A stretch of 64,000 bases of DNA from positions 1 through 64,000 of the forward strand of contig NOWV01000133.1 of assembly GCA_003344405.1 (NCBI GenBank), given 5' to 3'. Under the pieces are notes generated by a model, which was given only the letters and a program-made list of their open reading frames with translations, was not told where the DNA came from and made no database searches. Origin of the DNA: Trichoplax sp. H2. Its lineage: Eukaryota. Position 1 is the stretch's first letter, and each line of letters begins with the position of its first letter. Shown piece after piece: positions 4,401 to 63,293 of the stretch. A program made the translations under genes and the position numbers.

Positions 4401-5401
4401 GAAATCAAAAGTCGCCCACTATGCAAACTTGAGGTAGCTGTGGCCTTGATGATTATCACTTTTTGACTTTGTAGTTGCAGCCGAGGTGCTTATTGGTATT
4501 TCCTTGTCATCACTGGCAAGATTATTATTATATGCTGTGATGTACTACAGTACTGTACTTAGAAATAATGAAATGAAAAGTCCTCCGTATAATAATGTAA
4601 TAAAATTTTTCAATCAGTCTTTCGAACCAAATGTATCTCTTACGACTATTTTCTATATACAGTACATATAAACATCGGCTACGGTCGTACGCTTAATGAC
4701 TTTATTATCATCATGAACAATTTTCTATCACTGTATACGTCATAAAAGCAGAGTCAATATCGTCAATATAATTATTATTGCCCTGTATAATATATATTCT
4801 TTAAGTAAAAATTTTTGATTACTGCCAATAATAGACGAAATTTGTAATTAACTTTGTATTCGGCTTAATTGTAAGAAGTAGATGCTAATTTTCATTATCC
4901 GAACGCTTTTATTTACAGTTCGTCGAAGACTACGAACCAACTAAAGCCGACAGTTATAGAAAAAAAGTTGTATTGGATGGTGTCGAATGTCAAATTGATA
5001 TTTTAGATACAGCAGGGCAGGAAGATTACGCTGCTATTCGGGACAATTATTTTCGGAGTGGTGAAGGATTTCTGTGTGTTTTTTCCGTTGCTGAGCGAGA
5101 ATCATTTCAAGCTACAGCGGAATTACGTGAGCAAATTCTTCGTGTTAAAGCTGATGAAAGAATACCCATATTATTAGTTGGAAATAAATGCGATTTGGAA
5201 GATAGACAAGTGACTGCGGAGGAATGTCAATCTAAAGCGAATGAATGGCGTATTTCGTATGTGGAAACATCAGCTAAAACAAAGCTAAATGTTGATAAAG
5301 TATTTTATGATTTACTCCGAGAAATTAAAAATCGTAAAGATCAAGGCGTTGCTAAAGCTCCTGGTAAGAAAAAGAAAAAGAGCAAATGTACTATATTGTA
5401 A
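1448..5401 (+). CDS. RAL: Ras-related GTPase Ral, 2 exons (1448-1552, 4919-5401), 195 aa
   Basis: [51 protein letters not shown] gives the Ral-type effector loop. Also [30 protein letters not shown], a polybasic tail and CAAX CTIL. The phase-0 GT-AG intron is 1553-4918. Confidence 0.97.
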
Positions 5402-9914: not shown

Positions 9915-11688
9915 AGGATTACTTTGAAGTCCTTTAAGAGAGTGCAATCAGTAATATAGCGGCTTACTGCACTTGTAAGATATAGGATGATTTATTCTCT
10001 TGATTCGATTCAATGTATTAATACCACATTAACTATATTTCGAATCTTTTTTTCCTTGCAATTTATTATAATTAAGTCAAATAGTTTTGAATTGGATCTA
10101 GATGTAAACTGTGATCAGTGTTGATCCTTTGCTTTTTCCTTTAACTTTACTTACAAATGTTCTTTCTTAACATAGAAAATCAGAGTTGATTTATCAACTT
10201 CTTGTATTAATTCGATGTTCAGGTTGTTCTTGCGGTAAGGTAATTTCCTGTTTAACAGATTATGCAAACTGTCGTCGCTCACACATAAATATGCAAAATT
10301 ATTCTCAGTCCGAAAGGTTTTACGTCCATATTTCAACTGAGTGACGAATCGATTTCATTTGATAGGAGTATTTAACTCTATATAAGTCAATGTTGCTATT
10401 TATATTATACATAATCGCTTCTAAAAATAGCTCATTTTTATTCCAGTGGTACATTAAAGTAAGTAAGTCAACATTTACAAGTTAGTATGACGTCGTTGGT
10501 TTCCCAAATTAAGTAAGTTATCATAGTTTTGGATAGGATATCATGAATTAGCTAATTTAGTATTTCAATGATTATGTTAGTAACTACCGAAGATTATAAA
10601 TACGCTGACATGGGTTATTATTTTACTCGTACTTAGTTGTGTGTCCTAACCGTATCCCATTATGGCCTTTCCATATATGCCTTACGATACCTTATTTAAG
10701 CTTCTATCACAGCTCGACAGTACAAAAAATGATCATATTCTACCTCATCTATGCCACTACTGTATACCCGATTTAATACCAAAATAGAAGCAATTTTTAT
10801 TCATATTAGGATGCTAAGCAAATATATATACATCAATCTTAATATGGATCATTTATCGAAAGTAAGGATTCTAGATTTTGTTCTTGCACTCAGCGGTTGC
10901 GCTAGGAATTTGTTGATATCATTGCAGCATTTGCGAAAATATTTCTATGGCGTAAAAAACAGGCATCTAAGGTTTACCATATTGAATTAAAAACAGACCG
11001 AGACAGTTAGCTTTATTAAATAAGTTATCAAATCCTTATATCATTGATTGATCACACGTTTTCATCTATCTTAAACCCACAGGCTTAGTTAGGCCGATTT
11101 TAGTCTTTTTGTCAATCATCTTCTTGAATTTTAGACTATATAGTGAAGATTAATATGGGCTTGACTTTATTGGCTGCCAAATATAGAGGTTAGGAACAAC
11201 AGATTTCAATCGTATCGGTGAGAGAAACTATCAGAAAGGCAAATACAAATTGATGTAATAATCTAGCTTCTACAGTATATACCACGAGGTAATGTTGGAA
11301 ACAGTAAAATGACTTGCTATTCGGTGAAAAAAATAACTTGATTGCCTAACTATAAGAAATTGACTTAAAATCTATTTTAATATCATAACGTTCTAATGAT
11401 TATTAGCAAAGGCACAATTTTGATAGAGATCAAGCACGTATCGCTATTTCAATATTTCACTATAAAATTTTAATTACTCTGACCATATCAGGCTTATTAA
11501 TTAAAATGAGTGATTATAGAAAAGAGACCATTTCTGTCTAAGCATATTGCCTATTTACCCCCTGAAATGGCAGGTATATACTTCCAGTAAAATCAGTATA
11601 TGAATATAAATTAAGAACATATTGCAACTGCTACAGTGATGATTATTTGCTAGATTAAAATCTATTATTGGCTAACGAAAGTTATCTA

Positions 11689-13116
11689 CTACTTTAAGGG
11701 AGAAATATCCTTCAAGGTAGTTACTTCGAAGCGAAAATTTGTTGGTATTGAGGATAATTTCAGCCGGTAAATAGCCTTGATGTCGTCAAGCTATAAAATA
11801 TAATTTAAATTGATGAGCATATTTAATGAATGAGAGTATTTAATGTCAGTTAACAAGTATATGTATGGTATGTAAACTATTTAAAAATGAAAATCAACCT
11901 TGAGATATCGTAAACATTTACGTATGCATTGAAGTATCTATATACTATACATGCAAATCGTCGCTCTAGTCAGATATAAGTTACTTTTAGACAATTATGT
12001 ACCTTTTCAGTCAAAACGCCAGTTTTTGATTCGGCAGCTAAAATAAAACTTGATTCTCCTTTACCGGAGATGCTATGCCATAATTTACCAAGATCTGGTT
12101 GTTGGTTGGACTGCAATTTTTTAAAATCAACATAACAACCACTAACAATAGCTTTAACGTTATGTTTTATCATTGGTCGCTGATCTATATCCACAGCCTC
12201 TAGACTACTGAACGAAGTACTTCCTCGAAAGCAAAATGGAGAATTGGAATTGAACTCTTCGATATTTGACATGACTTCCTTGAAAGTATCGCTACTTTCA
12301 CGTTGTGATGTCTTCATTTGCGCTGTAAAAGCTGATTAAAAGTCGATGAAATCTTAGATAATAAGTCTTTAAAACAATTATAATATATAATTGCATTATT
12401 CCGGTATTTATAATTATATCAAGGGATATTGTTGAATTGGAATTAAAAATAAATGGTATTTATATATTACAGGCTACTAATAATTTAGCATACTCCTTTT
12501 AGATTGGCTTGATAGGAATGCAATCATAGAAGGCATCAATTTATCATTTGTAACAATCCCGTCGGCGACATGTGCAACATTTCTTTGTTGGATGGACATC
12601 GTATACCCTTTTAAAAATTTATTAAGTGATGCGATGCCGAATAAATATCCAGTTTTGTTCAAGTTAGATGCATTGCCGTCGGTAAAATAGAGAGTAGCAT
12701 GATGATGCTTGGAGTGCATTTTAAACGCGATAGATTTTTGTTGAACCTAGTGATAGATAATAGGATGATGCTTAAATACGATTTTAATGATTCCATTTTG
12801 TTAATTAATTCTAAATTGGTCCATTAGGCTACAAAAATCAGGCGGGAATATATCGTAAGTTAGCTAAAAACTGTCGCTGGCAGCTACGAACAACGAATAA
12901 GAGTTCTGATCGCAGTAGTAACATTTGACGATTACCTGTTGGCAAATTTCATTATTTGATGGAGAATATTTAAGTAATTGAGTAGTAGTATTTGCCGTAA
13001 TCATGTAGGTACTGCCCTGAGGAATAAATAATGTAGCTCCTGAATCTAATCGCGCTGCTTGGCCATTAATTTCAGCATAAATGTTGCCTTTTAGAATGTT
13101 AACCATGACTGAAAAC
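11689..13116 (-). CDS. Four exons (13116-12936, 12746-12494, 12322-12003, 11790-11689) encoding the C-half of a cupin plus an acetolactate-decarboxylase-like region; probably the 3' part of the oxidase gene
   Basis: All junctions are GT-AG and phase-consistent (2,0,1,0), ending ...TTLKDISPLK*. VNILKGNIYAEINGQAARLDSGATLFIPQGSTY matches the cupin pattern. Confidence 0.8.
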
Positions 13117-14148
13117 CTATAAAAACGTTATAAGCATTTGTTACAACTTAAATGTAATCATTCGAACGTGATAAGCAAAGCACGCTATTTACCTCCTTTT
13201 GCTTAAAAAAACAATTATAGATTAAAAAAAATCATCAATTTTAATACTTCAGACAAACATCAAAGATTGCATGATATTGATATCAATTTCACTCCATTTT
13301 GTCTATAAAAATCGACATAAGTAACTGATGTTGTCGTATCATGTAGGTAAACGAGCGAAAGTACGATATACAATCAACTATATATTTACAGCACAATTAA
13401 AATAACGGTAATTAAGATTTGATATTAAATCAGAAATTATTATGATTTGGTTTAGAATAGCAAATTATTAATGCTGTTGCACGTCCCAGAAATATTGATC
13501 ATGATACTGCGGGCTATATCGCAGATCGCAGGTACGATAAAGTTGATTGTAGTCATATAAAAATTCGCCAAACTTACTAGAATGAAGCACTGGTACTGAA
13601 ACTAATGCAAACGTAGGTACGTAATTAAAGAAAATATTCAGTCAGCAGTTGTGTTACAAAGCAAATGAGGCTGGTAAAATGTAAAATTTTTAAGTTTAAA
13701 GGAATGAGGTAGAGGTGCTATTGATAACGTGGGATGTTAGCAAATCGTGTAAGGACTGCCTACTAAAGTATAATTAGATAACTGTTGGCATTAAATCTGC
13801 GTTTGATAGTCTTTACTTTCGCAATACTGCATAAAAATATAAACGAGATTGTTAGCTTGAAGTATACCCCAAGAATATCTCCTGATATGTAGTTTAGGTT
13901 GTCAGAAAAGAAATATAAATATCTTAAAAGGAAAAATTTTACGTTTATGATTATAGCTATAATTTAAGTGAGCAAAAACTACTAGTAATAAAACTTTCGG
14001 TAATTTCTGTAATATACCATATTGACTAAACTCACCAGTATAGCACAAAACATATTATCATATAATACGTAGGTCAATATTATACTTGTGTAAGAGGAAG
14101 ACAAGTGTTCTAGCAAGACTATTACGAGAGTAACAAATCGTATCTTAC

Positions 14149-17100
14149 CTTGTATTTTCACCGTATTCTCTTGCTTTAACAGCCATCGACTGATGAATAG
14201 ACATTACATCTTCTTTACATAATATCTTCTGTTCAATTCCTTTCGATGGTTTTAGTTGGATATAATCTCGTTTTTTGTCTGGATAATATTCCTTCCTTGA
14301 TACAGGATCAGCCGCTTTAGAATCGACGCTTGATGCTTGATAAATTTGGATTACTGCACGAAGTGCCGACTGTATAGCTCCTTGAATCCAAAAATGGGTA
14401 AACGAAGTATGTTCACCGGCAAAGAAGCAGCGTCTTTCTCCTAAAAATTCAGTATACTATTTCATTAGCTAAAATGGCAGATTCAGTGCTTGCTTAGTTT
14501 CTACTTATTTGATAAATAGTAGACGGTATCCAATTCATAAACTTCGTGCCAATTAGGTGAATTTTTGTAGATATACTCACGACTATAGCTGTTTCTGAAT
14601 AACAGTTCACGTTGCTGAGGATAAAAGTAAGAAACCGCAGCTCCGGTATAAGGTTGGTTCTTCCATACTTGTGATGTTCCAGTTTCAAAAAGATCATAGG
14701 CTTGATCGCCATGCATTTTAGCTACATATTCTAGTGCGCGACGTAATCTACAATTTTCATCCAAAGATCCCCAACGATCTGCTTCTGCTTCCCAGGTGTA
14801 TGCTGCTAAAAGTACCGCTATATACATAATAAAATTCATACTGATTAGTCTCAGACTAGGATGATCGTTTACAACGAAGTTTATTAAGAAAATGATGCAT
14901 ATTCTATGTATGTCATAAACTTCACTTTTTATGGATGTAGATGAAATGGTTTAACTCGGGAACATGCAAATAAGGAATTTCTGCAAGTTTGATTAAAATA
15001 TTAATTTATAGAAGTTACTATTACAAACCTCTTTGGTCATATTTTACACTTCCAGTCGGATAATAAATCGCTCGTAAAGGAAGATCTGTTGTTGAGCCAC
15101 CTCCATTAATGATGCCGGTTTGATTGAATTCAGCTGCAACCTAAATAGTAACATTAAAAATGATAGGTAAAGAGCTAAATCTTCATATTTCCTACGAACA
15201 ACTTTATAAACGCTTAGGACCTAAATTTGCAAATGTATTATAAGAAACTGAGAAAGATTTGTAGAAACTAACCAAAGGATTTGGTTTAACCCAGAACGCT
15301 TTACGAAATTGTAGTAAAATTTTTGTTGCACTGATGTAATGAAACTCTCGGATAGATTGCCTTTTGGCCGGAGAAAATGGAGGATCAGTAAGAACATCTC
15401 GTAAGACGGTGAAGGGCAATGTAATCAAGACAAAATCGAAGGTGAGTTTCTTTTTATAGGAGTTTTGAACGGTATATTCGACGGTAGCTAGACTGTCTGA
15501 TTGCTTAATGCTACGAACCAGTGCGCCAAATATTAAGTTGTCTTTTAAATCTAAATTTAATTAAGATATCACAGAGAGTGTTTCTTTAGTTAAAATTTGC
15601 AACCTAAATAGAATTATTAAATTATGATTGCCATTGTAAAATACACTTATACGCGCACAAAGAAAGGACGATCGAGTGATAACTAAGTCATTTTATCGCA
15701 TGACAGAATTACATACGGTAATGTATTAGTTATATTCATAAGTTCAGATAAACTGAACTTTATTTATAGCCTAAATTGAATCACTTAAGATTGAGACTCA
15801 TTTGCATTAGCTAAATTATATGATTTATAGTTTAGATTTCATAAGTTATTGTAACCTAAAGTTTAACAGCCTAATTTGAAGAACTTAAAATTCAAATTCA
15901 TCGGAATCAGCTAAATCAAAAACTTATTGTCTAGATTACATAAGTTCATATAACCTGAACTTTAACTGTCTAATTTGAATTATTTAAAATTTAGACTTAT
16001 TTATATCAGCTAAATTATATAATTTGTTGTTTAGATTACATGCATTCATATAACACAGTGGTGCAATATACTTTACCAATCGAGTAGTAGTTAGATAAAA
16101 TTTAGGCTCGCTTAAGTTAGCTATCAAATTTATCATATGGCTATGAATGCATAATGTTCAAACTTTTGCTATTACAGCATAATAAGCTCCCCTATCTTTC
16201 TAATTCTTTTACCAATAGATTTTCAATATGTTAAATGAAAAAATACTTACGTTTATAGAATGCAGATGGTAGAGCATCAGTACCGTTCATTACTTGATGT
16301 AAGTGGCTTCTAGGTAATCCACGATAAAGATTGTCGGAATCATTCTTTGGATATGAATAATAGGCATTATCGCTCCAAAATTGCCCAACATAATCCTAAT
16401 ATCAATAGCATAATAAAGCTTAAAATTTAGAAAATTATTTCTATTAATTTTGAAATGATATAAACGCATTCATATCTCAAAATAGGTCAAACTGTAATGC
16501 ACTGTAGATATTTTGTAGCAACAATGATCACCAATCAATGGTCTAATTAGGTAGATGAAAACTCTCCCTCTGTAAATTTCTCACGTTTATACTTTCTTTT
16601 ATATCGTATCATATATATTAAAAAGTGAACATTGCTTTATTGCTAAGGCACCTTAAAATACTCGATAAAACCAATATCCAAAAAGTTTTCTTGATTAATA
16701 ACCACGGATAGGAAAGTAATATAATTTTTTGACCACATCAAGGATTCCAAAAATGTTCTGGTTGAGTATTGGTCATATTTCTGCATCATATGTTCCCATC
16801 CTATTTGCACATGTCAAAATGTGTTAATTCGATTAATTATGATAGCAGTGAATTAATGTTAGTAATCATCAATGTAAATCGTATATCTAGCATCAAGTGT
16901 GAATCAAACAACATTACCGCATAATTCTAATTCTTTGATTTGCGATTTCATCGCATCTTCAAATCGTTTGACAGGCCATATGCATTCTTTTGATTCGACG
17001 TTAAAATCAGCGCATAGCTTCATGACAACATCGTGCCGGTAATCTAAATATCCATTAAATAACGATGGATTGTTAGAAGGCTTCTGATCCTTGATGATAT

Positions 17101-20100
17101 TATGTTAAAAATATAGCATAATATAGTTATATCTGTTAAAGTTGTGTGTTCATCAAAGTAATTTGATTTATTGCCCAATTGACTGTTTTCCAATAGTGGA
17201 TTAGTCAAATGTTGCATGTAGTTCATACTGTATAAAATTGAATAAACGGCTTATACTTAACTAGTAATCACTTAATAAAGTATTAGGATGGGACTTCTTT
17301 AGAAGTTGTATTATATTTAATTAACCTAGAATTTGAATAGCTGTACTTTACGGTTTATTAAGGGCAAGGACAAACTCATGATGGACATACAAAATTTTGA
17401 TACTGTAGACGGAGCCAATTATACGTGCCACAGGATACTTGTTGTCTACATTTTATACGCTTTCATTTCTTATGCTAATTTTTCTAGTTACCTTTGGTTT
17501 TCCAATTAAAAATCTTTTTTGGATAGGGCCTGCTTCTACCATCTTTACTGGTAAAGTAGTATAAAGATTCAGGTCCGGCTGTTGTAAAGCTGTTCCAACT
17601 CAAACCCATTTCTTGCAAATATGCAAAAGTAAGGTAATGAGACGGAGGGAAACGCATTGGTCCTGCTTCGCCGTGTAAATGATCCTGATAGTGCATGGAA
17701 AGGATGTTTTAAAAAAATTTTATTTAAAAATAAATTCTTCCTCTACTTATTCGGTAATTAATCGTACATACTATTAATAATAAATAGACTTGGTAAGATT
17801 TTTATAATAGTCGAAAGAGATTATGAGGTTACAAAACGAAATAACACATGAGAAAAGAAATGAAATGTGCCAAACATATTTCGAATTGAATTTGTTCCAA
17901 GAGATTCATTATATAGCAAAGCTTTCGATAAGAGTTGTTACAATTTTTAATATCTTCTATTTTAAAGTGTTAAAATAATGATAGACTTACCGAGAAAATT
18001 TCACTTCGGAATGTTTTGGCTCTGCCTCCGATTCTTTGTGTGGCTTCTAGAATAGTTATGTCGTAGCCAAGGCGTTTTAATTCATATCCAGCAACCTACG
18101 GAATAATATGACAGTCAATGATCATACTATCACAATTAGCAATATTTGAATACATATGAGTAGTTGTAATTATCTAATGTCAAGATTTAAGGAGATAACA
18201 GAATTTTAATATCAGCTAAGGTATTTCCAAGGCTAATTTGGCTTTTATTTTATTTATGCTCTATAGGTTAGGACTGAACACTTACCAAGCCCGACATACC
18301 AGCTCCAACGATTCCGATTCTGACTTTTCTTGTCACTTTCTTCATATTGCTTTTATTTCTGACAATTCTTAGTAGACATTCTCGAAATCGACTATCTTCG
18401 GTATGGGATTCCTTAACGAAGGTGTTGAATTTCTTGGTAGAGCCTTTACATTGTTCTTTAGTGAACCTATTTATTGAGAAAGATATGGCTATAGTGCAAA
18501 TGTAGTAACTGCTTAAAGATAATTAATTGGAGCTAAGGTATTGTCATATTTTTGCTTCTTTAGATTGCTTTGATACTTCCATGTTGGTATAATAATTATA
18601 AATGGTTTAGATATCGCTAATCATTTTATACTGTTCTTTAGAAGTTTAGAACTTATCGCAGAAATGAGTTGGAGCAAAGCAGTATTTTAATGCATTACTC
18701 ATTGTATGCTACACCCTTACTGGTATTTATCATAGCCTTCCCAATGCTTGCCAGGCGGAGAGTTTTCGACGTTATATAATACTGGTTCAGGTCCAGCAAG
18801 GTAATCTGCATCAACATTGCTGTAATAATTTAAGATAGCACTACAGTTATAATCATTTCCACCATTACAGTACCTGCTAATTTATTTTTTAATAGTGACG
18901 AAATTATTAAGTCCAATTTGCTTTGTATAAAATCTTTCAAAATTGTCAAATTATGAATATATTCAGTATCAACAATAAACTACAAATCGATATTACCAAG
19001 ATTGAAATTTGATATTATTACATTAGAAAACATGTGACGAGTTCAAAATGCCAAAGATAATTTTCAAAGATAGAAAGAGCTTTACTTACTCGAAATCGCA
19101 TTGTTTTTGTTCTGAATTATTTTCCGCAGTAGCATAAACTGCAATCTGTAAGTAGAATATCTATCTTAGCCATTGACTCCATTATCCAATGTAAAGACTC
19201 CTTTCAATAGTAAGTAGAATTTGGCATAGACCATGTTTATTCAAAATGAATAATCATTTGAGCTTGACTATTCGTTCTTTAAGGGTAGTTAATTCATCTT
19301 GTATGCCCCCCTCTACTTTACTAAAAGAAAATCAAAACTAGAAGACTAACTCTATTATGATTACCGATATTCAAAGTAAAAGTAATACTGCAAAGATCTT
19401 GTTAATACACTAGCATAGGCCGAGCATGATGAAAATATATAAATTGACGTGCTGTTATGGTTGTACCTATGTCCTGATCAACTCATTTCTCAAAAGAGCA
19501 AATGCTTACTACGTGCTTTTAGCTATTGCTTTAGCTAGCTTTTGCACAGCATTTGCGATAATTGTTGAAATAGCTACTGTAAAGTATAATGTATGGCACG
19601 TGCTTTGACATTTTAAGACGGCAGTCATTTTTTTAAAAAACCCAACTAGACACTTTTAAGGCCTCAGCTATCAATACCATGTTGCAAAATACAAGTAATG
19701 ATCACATTTTTAGTCGATACCGTACGATTATTGGCATAAAAGTCCTTGAACTGAAGCAATTGATCGTCTTAAATTAGTCCTTTTTAAATGTTCAATTCTT
19801 GTATCATTATAGATAAGTTCAAATATTGAGAGCCGTATATAAATGGTGAAATTAAGGTATCGGCCGTTTATATTACACTAGCTGTTACAGTATCTAGTTC
19901 CAATATTCAACAATCATATTATGGCCAATCTTAAGGAATGTCCGGTCAATCCTAGATATTCCAAGGCAGTAATCATGTGTCTGTTCTAGACATTGCTATT
20001 TGCGTTGTCTTACAACGAACAGCGCAAGAGGATTAATTTCGTAGAAAGAAAAAACATGTTTATTGTGAGATTAAAATTGAAATCTCGCGCGTAGATATAA

Positions 20101-21501
20101 ATGTTGCCGTCAGTCCAAAGATTGACCTGCTATTCCTATGGAATTACTTGTACATTCCTTGGGATTGTTTAATTGTAAGAATTGACAAAAATAATTCAAA
20201 TGTTCGCTGATCAAGATCAATATTTAAGGTTTAAATTACTGTAATATTTAATTAAATTAATCGCCTATTCTGTCGAAATACAAATGTTTTACACTATTGA
20301 GGTAAAGTACATTCGCTTTATAGTAGGCTAATTTTTAATGTCACTAGGACGAAAGGTCCACAATATCCTCTATTCATTTATTGACTTTTAATGGACAACA
20401 CTAAACTTTAGAATAATTTACCTATCAATTCATCGGTTAATACTCAAATTTATAGTATTTTAGAAATAGCAATAAACGCTCGATTTGCAGAAAGTAGGAT
20501 AGACAGAAAACCCTTAGAGAAGCCTAAAATCTTAGCAGAATAAACAGCTATTTCGGTACTACCTCGTAGTGCCATAATTAGCTCTTTAATTAAGTTTCAA
20601 GGGATTTCATGTAAATTTGACTAAAATTGCGCCCAAATAGATCCTTAAAACCTTGTGCAATTAAGATTGAATGTTTTTTATTTAATTTTTACTGCAGTAT
20701 TGAGTTACTTTATCCTTTATCAAATTTCTAATATTAACCCATCAGTGATCAATGTACGATCGATTCAAACAGTAAACAAGTCACGTACTAAAATGGTTTA
20801 ACCTTAACAGGAAGTTAAAATCATTTTATTACATGCTTTCTAGTATAAATAACGTACGATGTGACCCAATTATTTCGAAAGTTATTAGTGATTCTATTGT
20901 GCTATTTCCTCGGATTTTTATTAAGGAATAGGTTACCAAATAACACTGACTTAGAGCAAAACATCGGATCGATTCATTTTGTAGCGCCTTAGTTGACGAT
21001 CATTTAAGATGAGGAATATGCCATGAAAGATTAATTTGATATCGTATAATCATTAAAAATTAAAATCGGGGTGCGAAGAAATAAACAAGAAAGAGTTAAG
21101 CCCTATATATTCAATTGAGAACTACCGCACAGAGTTGACAGGAAATTATCCAATTAATTTATAAGCCGTATTGCGCTAATATCATATCATAACCAAGTGG
21201 ATTTTGAATTTATATTATTATTAATTAATACCCACTTAAATCTTGGCTAATAAAGATAGACGTGCTTTTACTGATACACAGTAGCTCAGGCACTAACTTT
21301 AATGATTTGCAGTTTATGTGTAATGTAGCCAATTTTGAAGGTCTGAATTATATTGGTTTGATCTTTCTATTGTACTGTATATCCAAAACTACAGTAATCA
21401 AGCATATTTCGATGTATTTGTAAAACTTTATTTTATTGTATAACGATATGTAGCTTACTTACCACAACAACCAGCAAGAATAGGATAGTCTTAGTTGACA
21501 T
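14149..21501 (-). CDS. Secreted L-amino-acid oxidase / flavin amine oxidase family protein, 13 exons (21501-21463, 19145-19090, 18819-18721, 18466-18286, 18095-17991, 17684-17492, 17043-16918, 16800-16652, 16395-16251, 15550-15273, 15140-15029, 14817-14581, 14440-14149); frame still open at 14149
   Basis: Signal peptide MSTKTILFLLVVV|IAVYATA. FAD-binding IGIVGAGMSGL|VAGYEL and LEATQRIGGR (GG motif). Also EAGPMRFP, HYISATKILLQFRKAFW, TTDLPLRAIYYP, LLAAYTW and FFAGEHTSFTHFWIQGAIQSALRA. All splice phases checked. Confidence 0.93.
15735..16053. repeat. Degenerate tandem repeat of about 100 bp (about 3 copies) in an oxidase intron
   Basis: cataagtt...aacctgaacttt...ctaatttgaa...agctaaat...tagatt units start near 15738, 15840 and 15938, with a partial unit at 16039. 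Confidence 0.75.
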
Positions 21502-22439
21502 CTTTATTTGCTACCAGTTATAGGATGGTTTAGCACTACTTTAATCACGCTTGACCAAAAGTTACGGCGTCGTTTGAAATATTTAAATATCTCCAATCTG
21601 CAATAATATTCAATTATTTCAAATGAGAGTTGAAAAATTTAAAGTTCAAAGCAGATTTTTGTTTTAATCATAATATTGATCAATTTATTATATATGATCA
21701 TTATAGGCGGTGGAAAATATCTGAAAAAGAGTTCTATACGCATAAAAATACAGTTTGACAGATGGCAACATTAATTTTTATAAGAACAAATTCTCCGCAC
21801 TCATCAGCACTTACTTATAATTCGAACTATATTTTAGTTATAAGATAATGTTTGCATATAGAAAGAAAGTGATGCTATTAAGGAGGGTTGATGCTCATTA
21901 TTAGAGAATTCAATTACTGGAGTGTGTCGACACTTACCGAAGCCAATTAATGTAATTTCGTTAAGGTGAAGCCAATCTAAGACTATCTTAATAAGAAAAT
22001 TTGCAAAGGTTACTCAGTAAACTAATTTATTTTTTTTTATCAGTTTATAAATAGCTAGAGAAACTGTAAAGAAATTAGGAAGATTCTATCGCTTCCAGAC
22101 TTCTCTAGCGAGGTTTGTTCTGCTATGAGGACAATCACTAGCAGAGCTTTAAATATATGCTCGGACTGCTTGTTTATTCTATTTCAAGATTTCGCAGCGC
22201 AGTTTCCGAGACTCATTACCATAATTATTTTCGGTATATTGTATAATATTGGATCCCTTAAATGCATGAAGATTCGCATCAACAAATTTTCGGTTTAAAA
22301 AAATTAACGAACGATGGCTGTATACGCTTAAGCTTTCGCTATAGGTCTACAGCTTTAAACGTGACTGCAAATCATGTGGACGTCATGCTGAAACCTTTCT
22401 GATGCAATCAGACAGTCTTCTATATTTATTTATCTAGTC

Positions 22440-24112: not shown

Positions 24113-27100
24113 CTATCGTTTCTTATATACACATGGTTTCAATAAGGATAAATTAGCTACTTCAGTATTACTTTTCTTTAGTTGTTTTGATACTTCAACG
24201 AACTGGAAGCGGATAAACATTTTCGATAATACAAGCTAGAATAGATATACAACAAAATATGATAAATTTTTATAAATTGATACACTTCTTTGAATACCAT
24301 AGATTAAACAATACTGATTCGTATAACCTGTTCTACCCTAATAAAGATAGAATATATCGAACAGAATATACCTTCTCCTTTAATTTAAATCCAAACATCG
24401 ATAAAGAACGAACGAATCTAGCTTCATGCTCAATCCTACTTAGAACTTCCGCAATTAGGAGGATTCCTCTATACGAAAGTGTAATTTTCGGTAAGGCATA
24501 TAACAGTTAATTATGCTGACAGAAATGGTGTTTGATTAATTATCCATCTACCCTGGTTTAAGTATGCGCTTTGCTTCTTTAACATAATCTAGTAAATTGG
24601 TGCCCATAAGAGCCAAACAAAAGACGACCATATCCACATGAGCATCCTCTAGCGGCGTCTTAAAAGTTGGCAAAAATTTAAAATTAGCATTTCTTATAGC
24701 ATCTAAAGACGGTATCACCATACTGTTATATTAGCTGCTGATTACACTGCTTTATCGTCTACTAGTAACTCTAAAGCCAATGAAAGGTAAATATCAACCA
24801 GATAGCACAGTTTTAGAAGTTATACTGTGCATATCGTATTACTGTAGATCGAAGTACTAATTTACTATACTGTGTGCATCATTTTAACTGTAGTCTACAT
24901 ACGTTTGCCATATCGCAAGCAATGATGTGGTCGGCGCGAGAAGCTAAGTCAATAGAATAGACTTTATTTGGAACTGACTGAGCCAAGCGACCTTCGCCAC
25001 AACCTAAATCGGCAATAATTAAGTCTTTGGATCTAATAGAAGAGGTGGAGTTCAAAAGTATCAGGTTAAATTAAATACTTCCTTATGTATGAGCAGCAAA
25101 TACTATATAAGATTATGTATAACCAGCCACCCAAAAAAGCTCTCGGCCGGCGAATATATTCAGAGATTCTAAGTAAAGTAATATTAAAGCATATACAGTA
25201 CGAGTATAATCTCCTAGGGATGTTAATTGTACGTGAGCATTTTAATACCATACAATAATTAAATCGGGCGTATAAAATATGCCGCGCTACCCAATATGCA
25301 TCGTATCAACTTTCCATTTTAAATATCTTACTTTTAATTCCTAATATCGAAGTACGTATACGAGTATACAGTATTTTTGTTAATTTTAAGAATTTTCTTT
25401 TGAAAGTTACACACGTGCAAATAGATTACACAAGTTGGTCATGGTTGCTTCTACTTCAACCACTGAATTTTAACGAAAGAATTTATTATTGTAGAAATGA
25501 TTCAGTGCACGTAAGACTTGCACGCACTTTGGTATTAAGTACATGCATGATGCTACCACAATCGTTCACTGGATCTTTCTTCAAACAAAGTAATTTGAGC
25601 AGAACTACCACCATGCATGAAAACAGTTACTTGGATTTTATAGAAAAATTAGGCTACTAATGCACTTCCTCAAGCATTAAGTATTCGATTTATCTAGATT
25701 GTCTCTACAAATACCCGTCTCTTATAAAGGATTTATTTATTCATTCACTTTTTTTCAGGCCTATTTATTTTAGAGCAACTTTATGACGATATAAGATAAA
25801 TCGAACATGGCTCAATATTATACCAATACAAATGGTGTATTGTAGATATGCAGTAAAGTACATACTATAGAGTAAACGGCATGCATTCACTTCAAGCTTT
25901 TTAACCTAATAAACATTTCATATTGTAATGTTGTATCATTGATTCGAAAGCACTATATCGAGAGCAAAGGATTAGCTTATAAGTGTACTTGGGCTGGTCT
26001 TTTGACTTGGTGTGCAGAGGTCTGGCCCAAAGTGCATCTTCTTTTCTAACTGTCGGTAATTTCAAGCTAGTACAAGTAGTGAAAGTTATGTAGCTACTGA
26101 TTTTGCATGCACTATACTAATGCAGTAACAAATGCACCTGCTCCTAAGCAAATTACCCATGATGTTCCAGCTAGGGTACGTTTATTCAGTTCATGGCATT
26201 ACCTACGATGCTAATCTATTGCAATGTCAATCCTGAGCATGCTAGGCTACAGTATAGTGGTGTGCTTATCTCATGTCAAGGACTGGTACTAAAGGATCAA
26301 TATCTTTTAGTAGGGGAAATTACAAAGTGTTGCAAATGTTTGGACTGGACTTTTGACTTGGTCTACAGAGGTCTGGCCCCAAAGTGCATCTTCTTTTCTA
26401 ACTGTCGGTAATTTCAAGCTAGTACAAGTAGTGAAAGTTAAGTAGCTACTGATTTTGCATGCACTATACTAATGCAGTAATAAAATGCACCTGCTCCTAA
26501 GCAAATTACCCATGATGTTCCAGCTAGGGTACGTTTATTTTTAGTTCATGGCATTGCCTACGATGCTAATCTATTGCAATGTCAATCCTGAGCATGCTAG
26601 GATACAGTAAAGCGGTGTGCTCATCTTATGTCAAGGACTGGTACTAAAGGATCAATATCTTTTAGTAGGGGAAATTACAAAAAGCAAATGTTTGGACAGA
26701 AGGTGAGCATAGTACCGTGCTGTATCATATTTCGATGAGATGCAGTCTTCATCATGCTCTAGTCAAAAGGGTATAGCAGTCAAAGATGCAGTCTTCATCA
26801 TTCTCTACTCAAAAGGGTATAGCAGTCAAAGATGCAGTCTTCATCATGCTCTAGTCAAAAGGGTATAGCAGTCAAAGATGCAGTCTTCATCATGCTCTAC
26901 TCAAAGGGTATGGCAGTCATCATCTCGGATGGTAATGTCTATCTCACCTATTTCTGATGAAATCGATGATGTTATCCAACGGATTGATAGGCCATTTATC
27001 AACCTGAGTTTGGAATCCAGAATGATAAATATCAAAGAGATTGGGATCACTTTTAAACATATGAAACGCTTCCAATCCTTTGATAGTATAGAGTTTCTCA

Positions 27101-27486
27101 TTGACCCAGCGAAATCTTCCAGCTTGTAGTCTCTGAGCAAACTTATTATTTCCTTGTGTTTGGTATTGACCTGAGCCAACCTTGGTGTCTTTGCTGGTTG
27201 CTTGTACATTAGATAGACCTACACCATTTGCATGCAACTTGTCCATCTCCGATCGCTTACTGTTGTCTGACAATTTGACCTGAACTGGTGTGGACTTTAA
27301 GGGATCGGTATACAGTGGACAAGCCTTGACCCTCTTTTCAACATTAGCAAGCATCTTCTTGTTCCTCTTATCCCTTATTCTCTTTCTGAAATGATTCCAT
27401 TGCTTGCCTGTTAATTTCTTGAATAGTTGGAATTCTGCATAGGAATAGCGATTTTCATCACCCCGACGGTGATTTAAGGATAGCAT
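24113..27486 (-). CDS. RRP8: Ribosomal RNA-processing protein 8 / nucleomethylin (SAM-dependent rRNA methyltransferase), 5 exons (27486-26948, 25032-24903, 24658-24552, 24468-24372, 24235-24113)
   Basis: [65 protein letters not shown] and the C-terminal [10 protein letters not shown]. The start codon is the first in-frame ATG and is less certain. Confidence 0.95.
26000..26697. repeat. Near-identical tandem duplication of about 350 bp in RRP8 intron 1
   Basis: tttgacttggt...aaagtgcatcttcttttctaactgtcgg...ggggaaattacaaa...gcaaatgtttggac occurs at about 26000-26345 and 26351-26697. Confidence 0.95.
26738..26919. repeat. 46-bp minisatellite, 4 copies
   Basis: agatgcagtcttcatcatgctctagtcaaaagggtatagcagtcaa starts at 26738, 26784, 26830 and 26876. 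Confidence 0.95.
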
Positions 27487-27599
27487 TGGCAATGGAGGGA
27501 TTTGCAGACGATAGCGTTATTCGCTTCTTCTGCAGATTTCCTGTGCTCAATATCAAGGCAAATTTTGTACACAACCCGATCAGCTGGAAGAGAAATTCT

Positions 27600-28900
27600 C
27601 TTCTACTGTAAGTCGGTATAGTTGCTATAGACATGTCGCGAAATTCAGGTACAGTACAGCGTACAGTACAGTACTGTACGCTCTACACGCCTAGTACTGT
27701 AGTGTACAGTACTCGATCCAAATTGTACCGCCCCCCCCCCTTTGGACAGGAGTGACAATGGTTATGCACGAAGTATCGTTTGGAATGGCGTCATCTCTGC
27801 CTCTTGACCCTTGACTGCAGTCAGTCAGCTACAGCACGTTTGATCTGCCAAGTGACGTGCCAGCGTTGCAAATCCTAATTGCAATGCAGTGCAGCCCAGT
27901 AGTATTTTGTGGATGGATTACTCAATGTAATAAGATGAATCAATCTCTGTGCCTTCGTTATGTTTGAAGTATAGTCCGATTTGAGTCAGGCTTACATCCA
28001 ACTTCCAGAAGAACTTGGACAATTTGGTTCTGCTGTACAGTGTACAAGTGTACAGTATACAGTAGTGTATACTGTATACACTCGTGTACTCGTCCGCCGC
28101 AAACGATGATCCATTTAGACTGCTATAATCCTATTTCTGGCGTACAGCCTACTGTAGCTAACTGAAGTTGAGTGATTGCGCAATACCTTATTACAGTCAC
28201 AGTACTTTCCGTTATACGGTACTGTAGTGTACAGTGTACTGTACACTGCACAGTACTGTACTGTATGGTACTGTATGGTACTGTGTACAGTACAGTGACC
28301 ACAGCGGCTCACCATTGAAGCCATCGCATTGCCATTGATGATTGGCTGAGTGTCTGCATTTCTCAGACAGTCGTGTCAATTCTCAGGGAAACGAACCAAC
28401 GCCACGACGTCCAACATAGGTGAATGACGCTTCCAAAGCGTCAAGGAAGTTGATTGCAACGCGTCCATTGAAATCAACGCAACTTCCAGAAGAACTTGGA
28501 CAATTTGTTTATGCTGCACAAACGATGATCCATTTAGACTGCTATAATCCTATTTCTGGCGTACAGCCTACTGTAGTCAGCTGAAGTTGAATGATTGCGC
28601 AATACCTTGTTACAGTACAGTACTCTCCGTTATACAGTACTGTACACTGTACAGTGACCTAGACCTTGAGTGACCACAGCGGCTTACCATTGACGCCTTC
28701 GCATTGCCATTGATGATTGGCTGAGTGTCTGCATTTCTCAGACAGTCGTGTCAATTCTCAGGGAAACGAACCAACGCCACGACGTCCAACATAGGTGAAT
28801 GACGCTTCTAAAGCGTCAAGGAAGTTGATTTCAACGCGTCCATTGAAATCAACGCTACTGTCGTCAGTCTTGTGTCGCAAAGAAATGATTCCAATTTTGG
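27600..28900. promoter_or_regulatory. TACAGT/ACTGTA-rich island between the divergent RRP8 and glycosyltransferase genes (putative bidirectional promoter)
   Basis: Motif clusters at 27650-27712, 28034-28090, 28195-28296 and 28610-28655, plus a C9 tract at about 27732. It lies between two head-to-head start codons. Confidence 0.55.
27999..28855. repeat. Two-copy tandem duplication (about 480 bp and 375 bp)
   Basis: caacttccagaagaacttggacaattt...ttctcagggaaacgaaccaacgccacgacg...gaaatcaacgc occurs at 27999-28480 and 28480-28855. Confidence 0.95.
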
Positions 28901-29021
28901 GGGCACCCAGGTTGCCGCCACCTTGAATCCAATTTGAAAGCAAAAATTGGACTGTTGAGCATGGAATAATTCCAATCATTCCGTGGTAGGCATTGGTACC
29001 AAATTGATACAGTCAGCGCAG

Positions 29022-32000
29022 ATGGCTCGGTATACTTGTCATCAATTTTACATTCTTTTCCAACTATGTCTAGTATTGATTTTGATACAGTGGACAATCC
29101 ATCATGTCAATTATGCCAGTGATCGTTTATACCAACGCCGTAATGGCGCGTTCAAGCTGCATTCCCTACAGCAGTCAGTCCAAGTTGAAAAGGCGAACCA
29201 TAGGATCAGAAAATTAAGTAATAATAGTCGTCAATCAGTCAATTTAATCACCATCGAAAGTGCTAGACGTAGTAACCGTGATATCTTTCCTGTCAAGTCT
29301 TATTTTATACCAATGGTGATTTTTTCATCATTTCGGCTCCATTATATCACTCAATTATTACAATCATTAAAAGTGGCTGCTATGACTGCTAATTTAGATG
29401 GTGCAAGCCCTTGCTTATTTGTATTACATCGGAATAAGGATGTTTCACAACAGCATATCCGTGATATGCAACGACTGTTGAATACCATTCAATTTTGTAA
29501 GGTGTACCAGTGGAGAGTGCATGCTCCTAATCAAGGCAAAAGGACAGCTTCGTCCTTTAAAGCTGTCTGGTTTGATGCTGTTAAAAGAGCCTTTGAAAGC
29601 CAAAGTAAGTTCGAAATTAAAATACTGTAGTATGAATCCTGCGCTATGACCAAGTCGCGTAGCTCGTATTTCTTCTTCACAACGTAATAACTGGTAGTAG
29701 TAGATCAAGTTGTAATTCATATCAATTAGCATTGAATGGATCAAGGCCCATCATATTTTCTTTATGATTAACCAAAATGAGTACTAGTCTGGTTTTGTTA
29801 CTTATTTTCTGTTCTGTTGTCCATGATTATTATAATAATATTAATGATATGGAACACACGTTTGCGGCATACAACCTATCAAATGGACTGTATACAGTAT
29901 GTTATGGCCAATCCTAGAACATCAACTCGACTATTTCTTTATACTTACTTTTCATTAGAATAAAGTCTGTTCTACAGCATTCTTATGGACAGACTGAATG
30001 GAGTTGACAAAATCTACTAATCGCTTACCTTGACTACTATTGGTACTCAAGATACGAAAATGACTCTTCTAATTTACTCACCACCGTAATACAGAATAGT
30101 ATACTATTATACTGGTGCTGTCTTCTTATTGATAGTGTACATAAAGTGTTTGTAAATGATTATTTTTTCAAAACTTAATCAATCAATCATCATAATGCAG
30201 AATACTAATCTACTATACAGTACTCTTATTAGCAGACTTCATGGAAATGATAGAAATCTATCAATAGCTATCGTAGTACTCTTTGGACTCTAGATATTTC
30301 GTAAATGACTATTTCTTCAAACTTAATAATCACCATAAAATACAGAATACCATTCTAGTATACCGTAAAGTATTATTATTAGCAGACATGCTAGAGAGGA
30401 CACAATCTACTAATTACTCACGTACTACTAATTGTACTCAAAATAGATACTGGAATGATCTAGTTTACGTTTATGCATGCATATTCAGTTACTGACAGTA
30501 GAATACAGCCGTTTTGATCACCTTTACTTTCTACGCTCTGATAGGACTTTCTATGTCAGTAATGTCATCTTCAGCTGATTTGAAGCTGACTTGAATGGTA
30601 TCCTCAACTATATCAACTCGTATACCTTATGTGCGTTAACTCTATAATAAACTATAAATGATTGCTAGTAGAACAAAGATACTGTGTATGGAAGGTACCC
30701 TCTTGCTATTGATCCAACCTAATGATGCCTTTTAACTGGAACGAGTCAATTTTCATTTATCAACATTTTTCCATAATTGAATGTGATTTATCAATCAATT
30801 GATCTGCTATATACAATTTATTACTAGTATGGTATTTTAGTGCCTCAAGTTCGAATATACTAATTAAACTATAATAATTCATATCAATCGAGATGCCAAT
30901 TGCAATAGTACTCAGAATACTAATAGCTTATTCAATTATAATTTGTTCCAACAATTTTGATACTCTTAGTACCCATAATAGACGTTATATTATGCTAGGC
31001 CAAATATTACTTGATAATTCAGAATGTTGTCTTTTGTAACAAGATAGCTGGAAAGAATTTTTAAAGTATTCAACATAGATTACGTATTAAGCAACTGCTA
31101 TGAATTATGAATTTTAAATTTGAGTGGTAGATGCAACTGTATTTGCTTTTATTGGATTGAATATATTACAACCGATTCGTTTCCAGTAGTTAAATAATGT
31201 CGCTATTTGCTCGGGATTAGAATAGCGGCTATATTCAGACACTGTTAAAATTTGCGATTAATTGAACACTATTTCCTAATAGATAAAATAATAGGTTAAT
31301 TTTCTACTTTATAGTATCCTTATTATGATGTATTACAATTCTATAGTATCGCCATGATATACAGTAAATATTTTAACAGACAATGAAGAACTGATATAGC
31401 TTTGCTGTAATGCGTAAAATTAGTTACAACAACCAATATAGCCTCTTTCACTCGTAACTTTCTGTGATCCTCCAAATTTCGAAGACTATACGTTTATCAG
31501 AGATGAATGAGTAAAATCGATAAATTTTATAATGAGTTTCATAGTAATGCAACAGTTGAACTGCTAGTATTTAATCATCTATCTAGTTTCTCATATTTAG
31601 CAGTACATGAATATTAATCTAAATTCCTAGAGCCGTTACAGCAATTAGAGAACAAGCGTGAAATTACGACGTGATATTCATTGAAATGTAATTTCCGGCA
31701 TATGCATACTAGTACAAGTTCACATACTACTGATGTAACTATGGATCAGGGGATACTGGATCCATTATGTATTCCTGTACATGATAACAACGGATAGAAC
31801 ATTTCATTTTGTGAAATTAATTTCGCAATCTGTCCTAATCGATCATTTGCAATTACTATATAATGGTAATGTTGCTTCAAAATTTACTTTAATAATAGTG
31901 AATGAAGACAAACAACCGCATATGTATTTAATGTAGTATCCAACCAATCATCCCGTAACCACAATGTATAATCTGTAAACTATGAGTGATATTGATTGAT

Positions 32001-54820: not shown

Positions 54821-63293
<8,473 letters not shown>

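Follow-up and report, generated by a model that had tools for sequence, protein, structure and literature searches.

L-Amino acids are oxidatively deaminated by L-amino-acid oxidases (LAAOs) to an alpha-keto acid, ammonia and hydrogen peroxide (H2O2). The animal enzymes, those of snake venom among them, are secreted and H2O2-producing, and in vertebrates and molluscs LAAOs are known as defence enzymes of venom, mucus and ink glands. Here we analyze a 64,000-nucleotide (nt) stretch of the placozoan Trichoplax sp. H2 (GenBank assembly GCA_003344405.1, contig NOWV01000133.1, positions 1 to 64,000; hereafter the window), whose minus strand carries a gene that was originally predicted, from the sequence alone, to encode an LAAO fused to a cupin and a further C-terminal domain. 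That prediction held that known LAAOs end shortly after the flavin domain, and the solved structures agree: LAAO chains of 483–507 residues align with the Trichoplax protein up to its residues 599–615, and the protein runs about 350 residues further. We put a probability of roughly 70% on the reading that this is one gene for a secreted LAAO-type flavoprotein of 958 residues with a non-catalytic, cupin-like accessory tail.

RNA support for a single gene

By exon arithmetic, the 17 originally named exons have AG acceptors and GT donors throughout, agree in phase and join into a single open reading frame (ORF) of 955 codons on the minus strand, which opens with ATG at 21501 and closes with TAG at 11691-11689. 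The boundary in question is intron 13 (13117–14148, 1032 nt), which lies between the oxidase exons and the tail exons. Its donor at 14149 (CAAG/GTAAGA) is in phase 2 and is compatible with the acceptor at 13116, as was first proposed. If this donor is left unused, the frame meets an immediate in-frame TAA (AGG TAA), so that from the sequence alone an oxidase gene ending at 14149 was a fair rival.

We therefore turn to RNA from four of 22 listed public runs, one each from four studies (X8, X9, X13 and X15), all in the form of Logan contigs. X8 is recorded as RNA and the other three are RNA by guess; the sampled-word shares of the four runs are 0.36–0.46, which by our arithmetic is near the exon fraction of the stretch. 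The joint 13116/14149, with 13117–14148 removed, is present in all four runs and hence in four studies, bordered by CT..AC on the plus strand, that is, GT..AG on the minus strand. Its shorter side measures 30, 181, 181 and 181 letters across the runs. Oxidase and tail exons also occur together on single contigs, namely X9 record 11 (3027 nt), which spans 11398 to 17683 and beyond, and X13 record 2 (2943 nt). The oxidase and tail exons are all on one mRNA, and the claim of a single gene is borne out. A processed copy in DNA is a remote possibility for the joined form, and nothing points to one.

A separate downstream gene, made of exons 14–17 with its own start behind an oxidase that stops at the TAA after 14149, is extremely improbable on these data. 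Read-through of the donor does give AGG TAA at once, and two exon-13 fragments from an ORF caller (P0005 and P0054, described below) likewise finish at ...ENTR. However, the spliced joint is seen in every run with both parts on single contigs, exon 14 codes for the second half of a barrel only, and neither contig starts nor loose ends were reported around 13116. Intron 13 itself holds no convincing ORF on either strand and no convincing start.

Another version of the gene would make two isoforms, with retention of intron 13 yielding a tail-less oxidase of 671 residues as a regulated short form. A retained intron would stop the frame one codon past the exon, and two contigs carry intron sequence: X8 record 8 is unspliced across 13705-14176 at a depth of 4.8, and X9 record 12 lies in the intron at 13261-13512 at a depth of 4.4. 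These depths, which are per-contig means and unsuited to ranking expression, are low compared with those of the spliced contigs (25.1 to 85.5 in X8 and 543.9 in X9). Pre-mRNA or DNA in the library explains such contigs equally well, the contigs give no proportions, and the short form would retain half a barrel. The intronic contigs may come from pre-mRNA, from DNA carried over into the library or from a minor form that keeps the intron and ends the protein at residue 671, but a regulated short form seems improbable to us.

The remaining splice sites are also well covered. The joint table gives 15 joints, with two further ones not among them, and contains 15 of the 16 coding introns, 14 of them in all four runs and 18466/18721 in three; the sixteenth, 18819/19090, is seen for X15 alone, in a separate table. 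At exon 16 (12003–12331) the RNA corrects the prediction: the acceptor lies at 12331/12332 instead of the predicted 12322/12323, the joint 12331/12494 is unambiguous in all four runs, and the extra TFTA residues are found in two public protein models (P0001 and P0002, below). This lengthens the exon by 9 nt, in frame, and the protein to 958 residues from the 955 first given. Exon 17 (11689–11790) ends in the TAG stop at 11691-11689, and the 3' untranslated region (UTR) continues below 11689 on contigs that are unbroken from 11790 to 11300 and beyond.

At the other end, the contigs of all four runs extend past 21598 into letters that exactly match 21939-21968, and therefore a 340-nt intron (21598-21937) in the 5' UTR sets off a non-coding first exon. 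This exon occupies 21938–22119, where the 3' end at 21938 (donor ttcg/gtaagt) is firm and the start is approximate; the longest contig loose end upstream measures 182 letters. The next exon (21463–21597; acceptor cag/a at 21598/21597) contains the remaining 5' UTR and, from the ATG at 21501 onward, the 13 opening codons, with the start of the signal peptide, and its joint 19145/21463 is present in all four runs. A TATA-like catatatttaaag near 22150 on the minus strand is situated about 30 nt upstream of the farthest contig reach. The locus is one placozoan gene on the minus strand with 17 coding exons, as originally counted, plus at least one 5' non-coding exon that had not been foreseen, and a coding sequence (CDS) from 21501 to 11689. 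A second copy of the gene is absent within the window.

An oxidase domain with a conserved tail

The flavin domain is unambiguous at the profile level. Pfam PF01593 (Amino_oxidase) matches residues 122-603 with 203 bits against a cut-off of 19.8, covering profile positions 1-439 of 443, and NAD_binding_8 (PF13450) matches residues 117-161 with 46.9 bits against a cut-off of 21.9, where the GxGxxG motif reads IVGAGMSGL. In the PDB, the best match is a reconstructed tetrapod-ancestor LAAO (E 5.8e-61), followed by Streptomyces L-glutamate oxidase (E 9.2e-56) and snake-venom LAAOs (E about 1e-47 to 1e-48; 2.9e-47 for 1f8r), whereas monoamine oxidases and LSD1 reach only about 1e-9. The GPMRFP, SATKILLQFR, AIYYP and FAGEHT blocks align with their counterparts in the ancestral LAAO. 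In the structure of Calloselasma LAAO, the substrate-carboxylate and flavin-side lysine roles belong to the Arg in MRxP, the Tyr in IYYP and the Lys in TKI. Judged by these alignments, residues 122-603 are assigned to the flavin amine oxidases, with L-amino-acid and L-glutamate oxidases as the nearest solved relatives, and the full LAAO-type flavin domain of the original prediction is upheld. Against NCBIfam, the whole protein gives N-terminal flavin adenine dinucleotide (FAD)-binding matches only. The closest long relative of the oxidase part is P0007, a metagenomic protein of 821 residues that is 37% identical across 55% of the query (E 4.3e-76).

The protein begins with a hydrophobic core of 14 residues (6-19; mean Kyte-Doolittle value 2.97), and no other 19-residue window exceeds 1.8. 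Coding exons 1 and 2, which encode this N-terminus, are joined in RNA. The N-terminus is thus signal-peptide-like by composition, with no other long hydrophobic stretch in the protein, and we infer that the enzyme is secreted, in line with the first proposal.

The tail behaves as a real, selected protein in sequence comparisons. A phmmer search of the tail against 1,835,955,588 representative proteins returned four at E up to 0.001, three of which are exon-sized fragments: P0005 (exon 13, 63% identity), P0004 (exon 14, 63%) and P0003 (exon 16, 56%). A word-based search among shorter proteins added P0054, a second exon-13 fragment, and together the four fragments are 56-63% identical to the tail and have open frames. 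Their ends coincide with the exon ends of the window, and they probably come from other placozoans. The LKPSKG...ENTR block before the junction is almost invariant across three lineages, and Cys648, Cys729, Cys849 and Cys881 are all retained in the fragments. Among 18 strain variants in the CDS (UTR and intron variants excluded), 15 are synonymous, five of seven in the tail and ten of 11 elsewhere. It is these open frames, the invariant block, the four kept cysteines and the 5:2 ratio of synonymous to non-synonymous variants that argue for selection on the tail. Within the representative-protein search, the tail is so far probably confined to placozoans and placozoan-like fragments; no cupin Pfam family is listed in any of the 48 long relatives of the whole protein, and an amine oxidase may be fused to an unrelated cupin elsewhere. 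One further match, P0006 (477 residues with repeats, E 1.5e-06 over six stretches), was judged to be a compositional repeat match and kept out of the alignments.

Residues ~627-735, which straddle intron 13, are likely to fold as a small cupin-type beta-barrel that lacks the four canonical metal ligands, as far as a predicted model and profile comparisons can tell. Exon 13 (14149–14440; exon arithmetic, Pfam, RNA, ESM Atlas and conservation) encodes the last part of the oxidase (FAGEHT...WIQGAIQSALRA), then a linker and then the conserved LKPSKG...AREYGENTR, which should form the first half of the barrel; exon 14 (12936–13116) would contribute the second half. A predicted model of this same protein exists in the ESM Atlas. 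When its residues 623-736 are compared with other structures, nine of ten structure rows are entire bacterial cupins of one domain each; the aligned length is 104-108 residues, and the template modelling (TM) scores by row are 0.72-0.83. Exon 14 also matches five Pfam cupin families at E 0.025-0.11, in the second half of the profiles and all below cut-off, and the fragment P0004 gives the same weak matches in the same place (E 0.0072-0.089). As a reference we aligned Cupin_2 proteins from 31 bacterial genomes, keeping 20 of 33 loci (short open frames), the consensus of which is the classical G.H.H...E...YIL.G...G..I..P.G..H pattern. Against this alignment, hhalign gives residues 1-130 of the tail a probability of 79% (P 1.6e-05), compared with at most 1.4% over 30 column shuffles and 4.1% for the reversed query. 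The signal comes from exon 14, which reaches 87.5% alone. We read a full barrel across the intron because of the Atlas model, the near-invariant LKPSKG...AREYGENTR and the cysteines on either side of the junction, 648 and 729, both of which are present in the fragments.

Cupins have their metal ligands in two motifs, G(x)5HxH(x)3-4E (motif 1) and G(x)5PxG(x)2H(x)3N (motif 2). In the hhalign alignment the first His corresponds to Arg671, the second His falls in a 6-residue deletion, the Glu corresponds to Ser673 and the motif-2 His to Tyr708. Motif 2 is hence retained as G-x5-P-x-G-x2-Y, with Tyr708 in place of His, and the HxH loop of motif 1 is deleted. The domain is likely a cupin fold that has no cupin metal site, and it falls outside the defined cupin families. 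Metal-dependent oxygenases, decarboxylases and isomerases are numerous among cupins, and a cupin that works on something the oxidase produces (an alpha-keto acid, an imino acid or H2O2) would make pathway sense when fused to an enzyme that releases keto acids. We give little credence to such a bifunctional protein, given that none of the four canonical metal-ligand positions is retained, the HxH loop is deleted and residues 604-958 match no Pfam enzyme family. The tail is read as non-catalytic because the metal site is lost; that it would be a binding or assembly module and not a second enzyme is, among its possible roles, about an even bet.

Alternatively, the tail could serve as a pro-domain or latency domain and be cleaved away during secretion, in the way that some microbial amino-acid oxidases mature from precursors. 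Two linkers contain dibasic sites, KKR at 629-631 and KR at 814-815, and PDB entries of L-glutamate oxidase, which were solved as several chains, carry 'precursor' in their titles. However, KKR is absent in P0005 (which has IKT) and in P0054, it sits at the start of the cupin-aligning stretch 627-735, and the four cysteines and the barrel block are conserved as in a working domain, which makes removal of the tail unlikely.

Beyond the barrel, residues 736-958 match no Pfam or NCBIfam family and likely form one or two further domains without a detectable relative. In the ESM Atlas, the feature matches for this region are at most 0.85, which is at chance level, and the TM scores by query are at most 0.34, the best being to acetolactate decarboxylase, from which we conclude nothing. 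A second cupin in this region, suggested by a 255-residue protein at TM 0.44 in one Atlas row, was dropped, given an hhalign probability of 0.5% for the last domain against cupins. Cys849 and Cys881 lie here and are the pair retained in P0003.

Several points weigh against this overall picture of a spliced oxidase with a cupin-like tail. On the RNA side, only X8 is recorded as RNA, the other three runs being RNA by guess, and all four consist of contigs, in which the junction is visible and isoform proportions are not, and the low-depth contigs in intron 13 leave room for a minor unspliced form. On the protein side, no Pfam cupin reaches its cut-off (Cupin_6 scores 14.8 bits against 26.7 and, in P0004, Cupin_2 scores 16.5 against 27.2), and the exon-13 half has no cupin sequence signal (hhalign 0.2%). 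The sole structural evidence is the predicted model of the Atlas, with a mean predicted local distance difference test (pLDDT) of 0.62 over the whole protein. An AlphaFold2 model of the 347-residue tail, built on a four-row alignment, is unusable because its mean pLDDT is 32.5; its predicted TM score is 0.22 and none of the 347 residues reaches 70. A PDB profile search with the tail alignment gave 23 matches at E up to 10, none significant for the tail: 20 oxidases, found through the oxidase end of P0005, one cupin fold (3fjs, E 0.8) and two at E 1 to 1.5. The complete cupin split by an intron that was first proposed therefore survives in part, with a cupin-like barrel at the junction according to the Atlas and hhalign, and with sequence signal in its exon-14 half.

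Public records, exon positions and neighbouring sequence

The gene model, fusion included, had already been deposited in GenBank before it gained the RNA backing described here, since RDD39479.1 (P0002; Trichoplax sp. H2, 'putative L-amino-acid oxidase YobN', 958 residues) is identical to the RNA-corrected protein over all 958 residues. It sits in the 90% cluster of P0001, which is XP_002111205.1 (TRIADDRAFT_54930) from Trichoplax adhaerens, a 937-residue protein and the one longer protein found by a search with exon 16. XP_002111205.1 has the same 14149/13116 junction and the same exon-16 acceptor as the window model and differs at both ends. Its C-terminal end is read-through of the exon-16 donor. 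Its N-terminus (MTAVLKCQ...) is read from about 19510-19630 on the minus strand, a different first exon inside intron 1 that carries no signal peptide. RNA contigs in this region have a depth of about 5, against a depth of 359 in the spliced contig from that run, and for this reason the start looks like an annotation error that drops the signal peptide.

In both records nothing is annotated past the amine oxidase domain. The architecture was first put forward as one not recognized. The tail is indeed unannotated, and in the literature, seen mostly as titles and abstracts, no account was found of a Trichoplax L-amino-acid oxidase, of TRIADDRAFT_54930 or of an LAAO-cupin fusion; the one passage found on placozoan amino-acid oxidases concerned D-amino-acid oxidase only, and the passages seen on Trichoplax amine oxidases bore no relation to this gene. 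The exact 958-residue sequence, however, was already public, as was the 937-residue T. adhaerens model. The practical gain today is small: the public gene model now has RNA behind it, and both ends of the older T. adhaerens model are open to correction.

The other coding exons follow from exon arithmetic and RNA contigs, all on the minus strand. Exons 2 and 3 lie at 19090–19145 and 18721–18819, the latter bounded by the joint seen in three runs, and exon 4 (18286–18466), also identified by Pfam, encodes the FAD dinucleotide-binding motif IVGAGMSGL. Exons 5 to 9 occupy 17991–18095, 17492–17684, 16918–17043, 16652–16800 and 16251–16395. Exon 10 (15273–15550) and exon 12 (14581–14817) both have Pfam support as parts of Amino_oxidase, with exon 11 at 15029–15140 between them. 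Past the barrel, the orphan C-terminal region begins in exon 15 (12494–12746).

Elsewhere in the window, a 170-codon open frame at 4889-5401 (plus strand) looks by eye like most of a Ras-family small GTPase (DTAGQEDY..., NKCDL...). Two unrelated neighbours are an open frame at 59520-59975 (plus strand) that resembles, by eye, an ABC-transporter membrane domain and one at 26944-27516 (minus strand) that resembles an rRNA-processing methyltransferase. The G+C content is about 41% in 1-2000 and 26001-30000 and 28-34% in the rest of the window. Positions 1-2000 have overlapping ORFs in both directions and repeated short words, and are probably a tandem repeat.

Proposed role and comparison with known systems

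In this placozoan, a single mRNA encodes both an LAAO-type enzyme and its tail, which has two parts, is conserved and probably lies outside the cell. In the mechanism that we propose, the enzyme would be released outside the cell and would there oxidatively deaminate free L-amino acids to alpha-keto acid, ammonia and H2O2. The tail would be an accessory module that binds a prey surface, mucus or a small ligand, or that drives assembly, and so it may place peroxide production where it is useful. The roles first suggested, ligand-binding modules and digestion or defence, are likewise inferred. If the tail targets the enzyme, it would offer a molecular handle on how an animal without gut or immune cells deals with prey and microbes, and a metal-free secreted cupin and an orphan domain would join the lineage-specific inventions. 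A bolder version, in which the barrel and the orphan domain are a placozoan invention that anchors a peroxide-making oxidase to the cells of prey or to the ventral mucus of the animal itself, is doubtful in our view, though it has some chance of being right. If true, Trichoplax would kill or pre-digest algae and bacteria in its external 'stomach' by local H2O2. One of the simplest animals would then possess a targeted chemical weapon, and the C-terminal domain may be a new fold.

Compared with other animal LAAOs (snake venom 1f8r, 1reo and 3kve; tetrapod ancestor 9qs1 and 9rum), the Trichoplax protein shares the flavin amine oxidase fold, and the alignments cover its residues 96 to 609-610 at E 5.8e-61 to 2.9e-47. 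The dinucleotide-binding motif is conserved between them, as are sequence blocks around MR[FI]P, TKI, IYYP and FAGEHT. The identity is low, and substrate preference is not readable from the alignment. The animal chains stop where the alignment ends, in contrast to the Trichoplax protein with its additional tail. The second-best solved relative, Streptomyces L-glutamate oxidase (7e0c, 8jpw and 2e1m), is a longer LAAO-type enzyme and a precursor according to its entry titles, but its extra length is no C-terminal cupin, and the alignment ends at residue 662 of its 687-residue chain.

On the side of the barrel, the closest systems are bacterial single-domain cupins (Cupin_2 PF07883, AraC_binding PF02311 and the PDB entry 3fjs, 'RmlC-like cupin fold'). 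The predicted fold of 627-735 superposes on whole cupins of 106-126 residues, and its second half aligns with their YIL.G...G..I..P.G..H block. Unlike these, the Trichoplax barrel has its HxH loop deleted and the four metal ligands gone, falls below every Pfam cut-off, is predicted to be extracellular with a conserved Cys pair, and is fused behind an oxidase. P0007 is also an LAAO-type oxidase with an accessory domain (Peptidase_M28 and Amino_oxidase), an architecture that would couple peptide trimming to amino-acid oxidation. However, that accessory domain is a peptidase and not a cupin, and it has no similarity to the Trichoplax tail. Set beside these systems, the Trichoplax protein is a known enzyme in a lineage-specific form, with a tail still unexplained.

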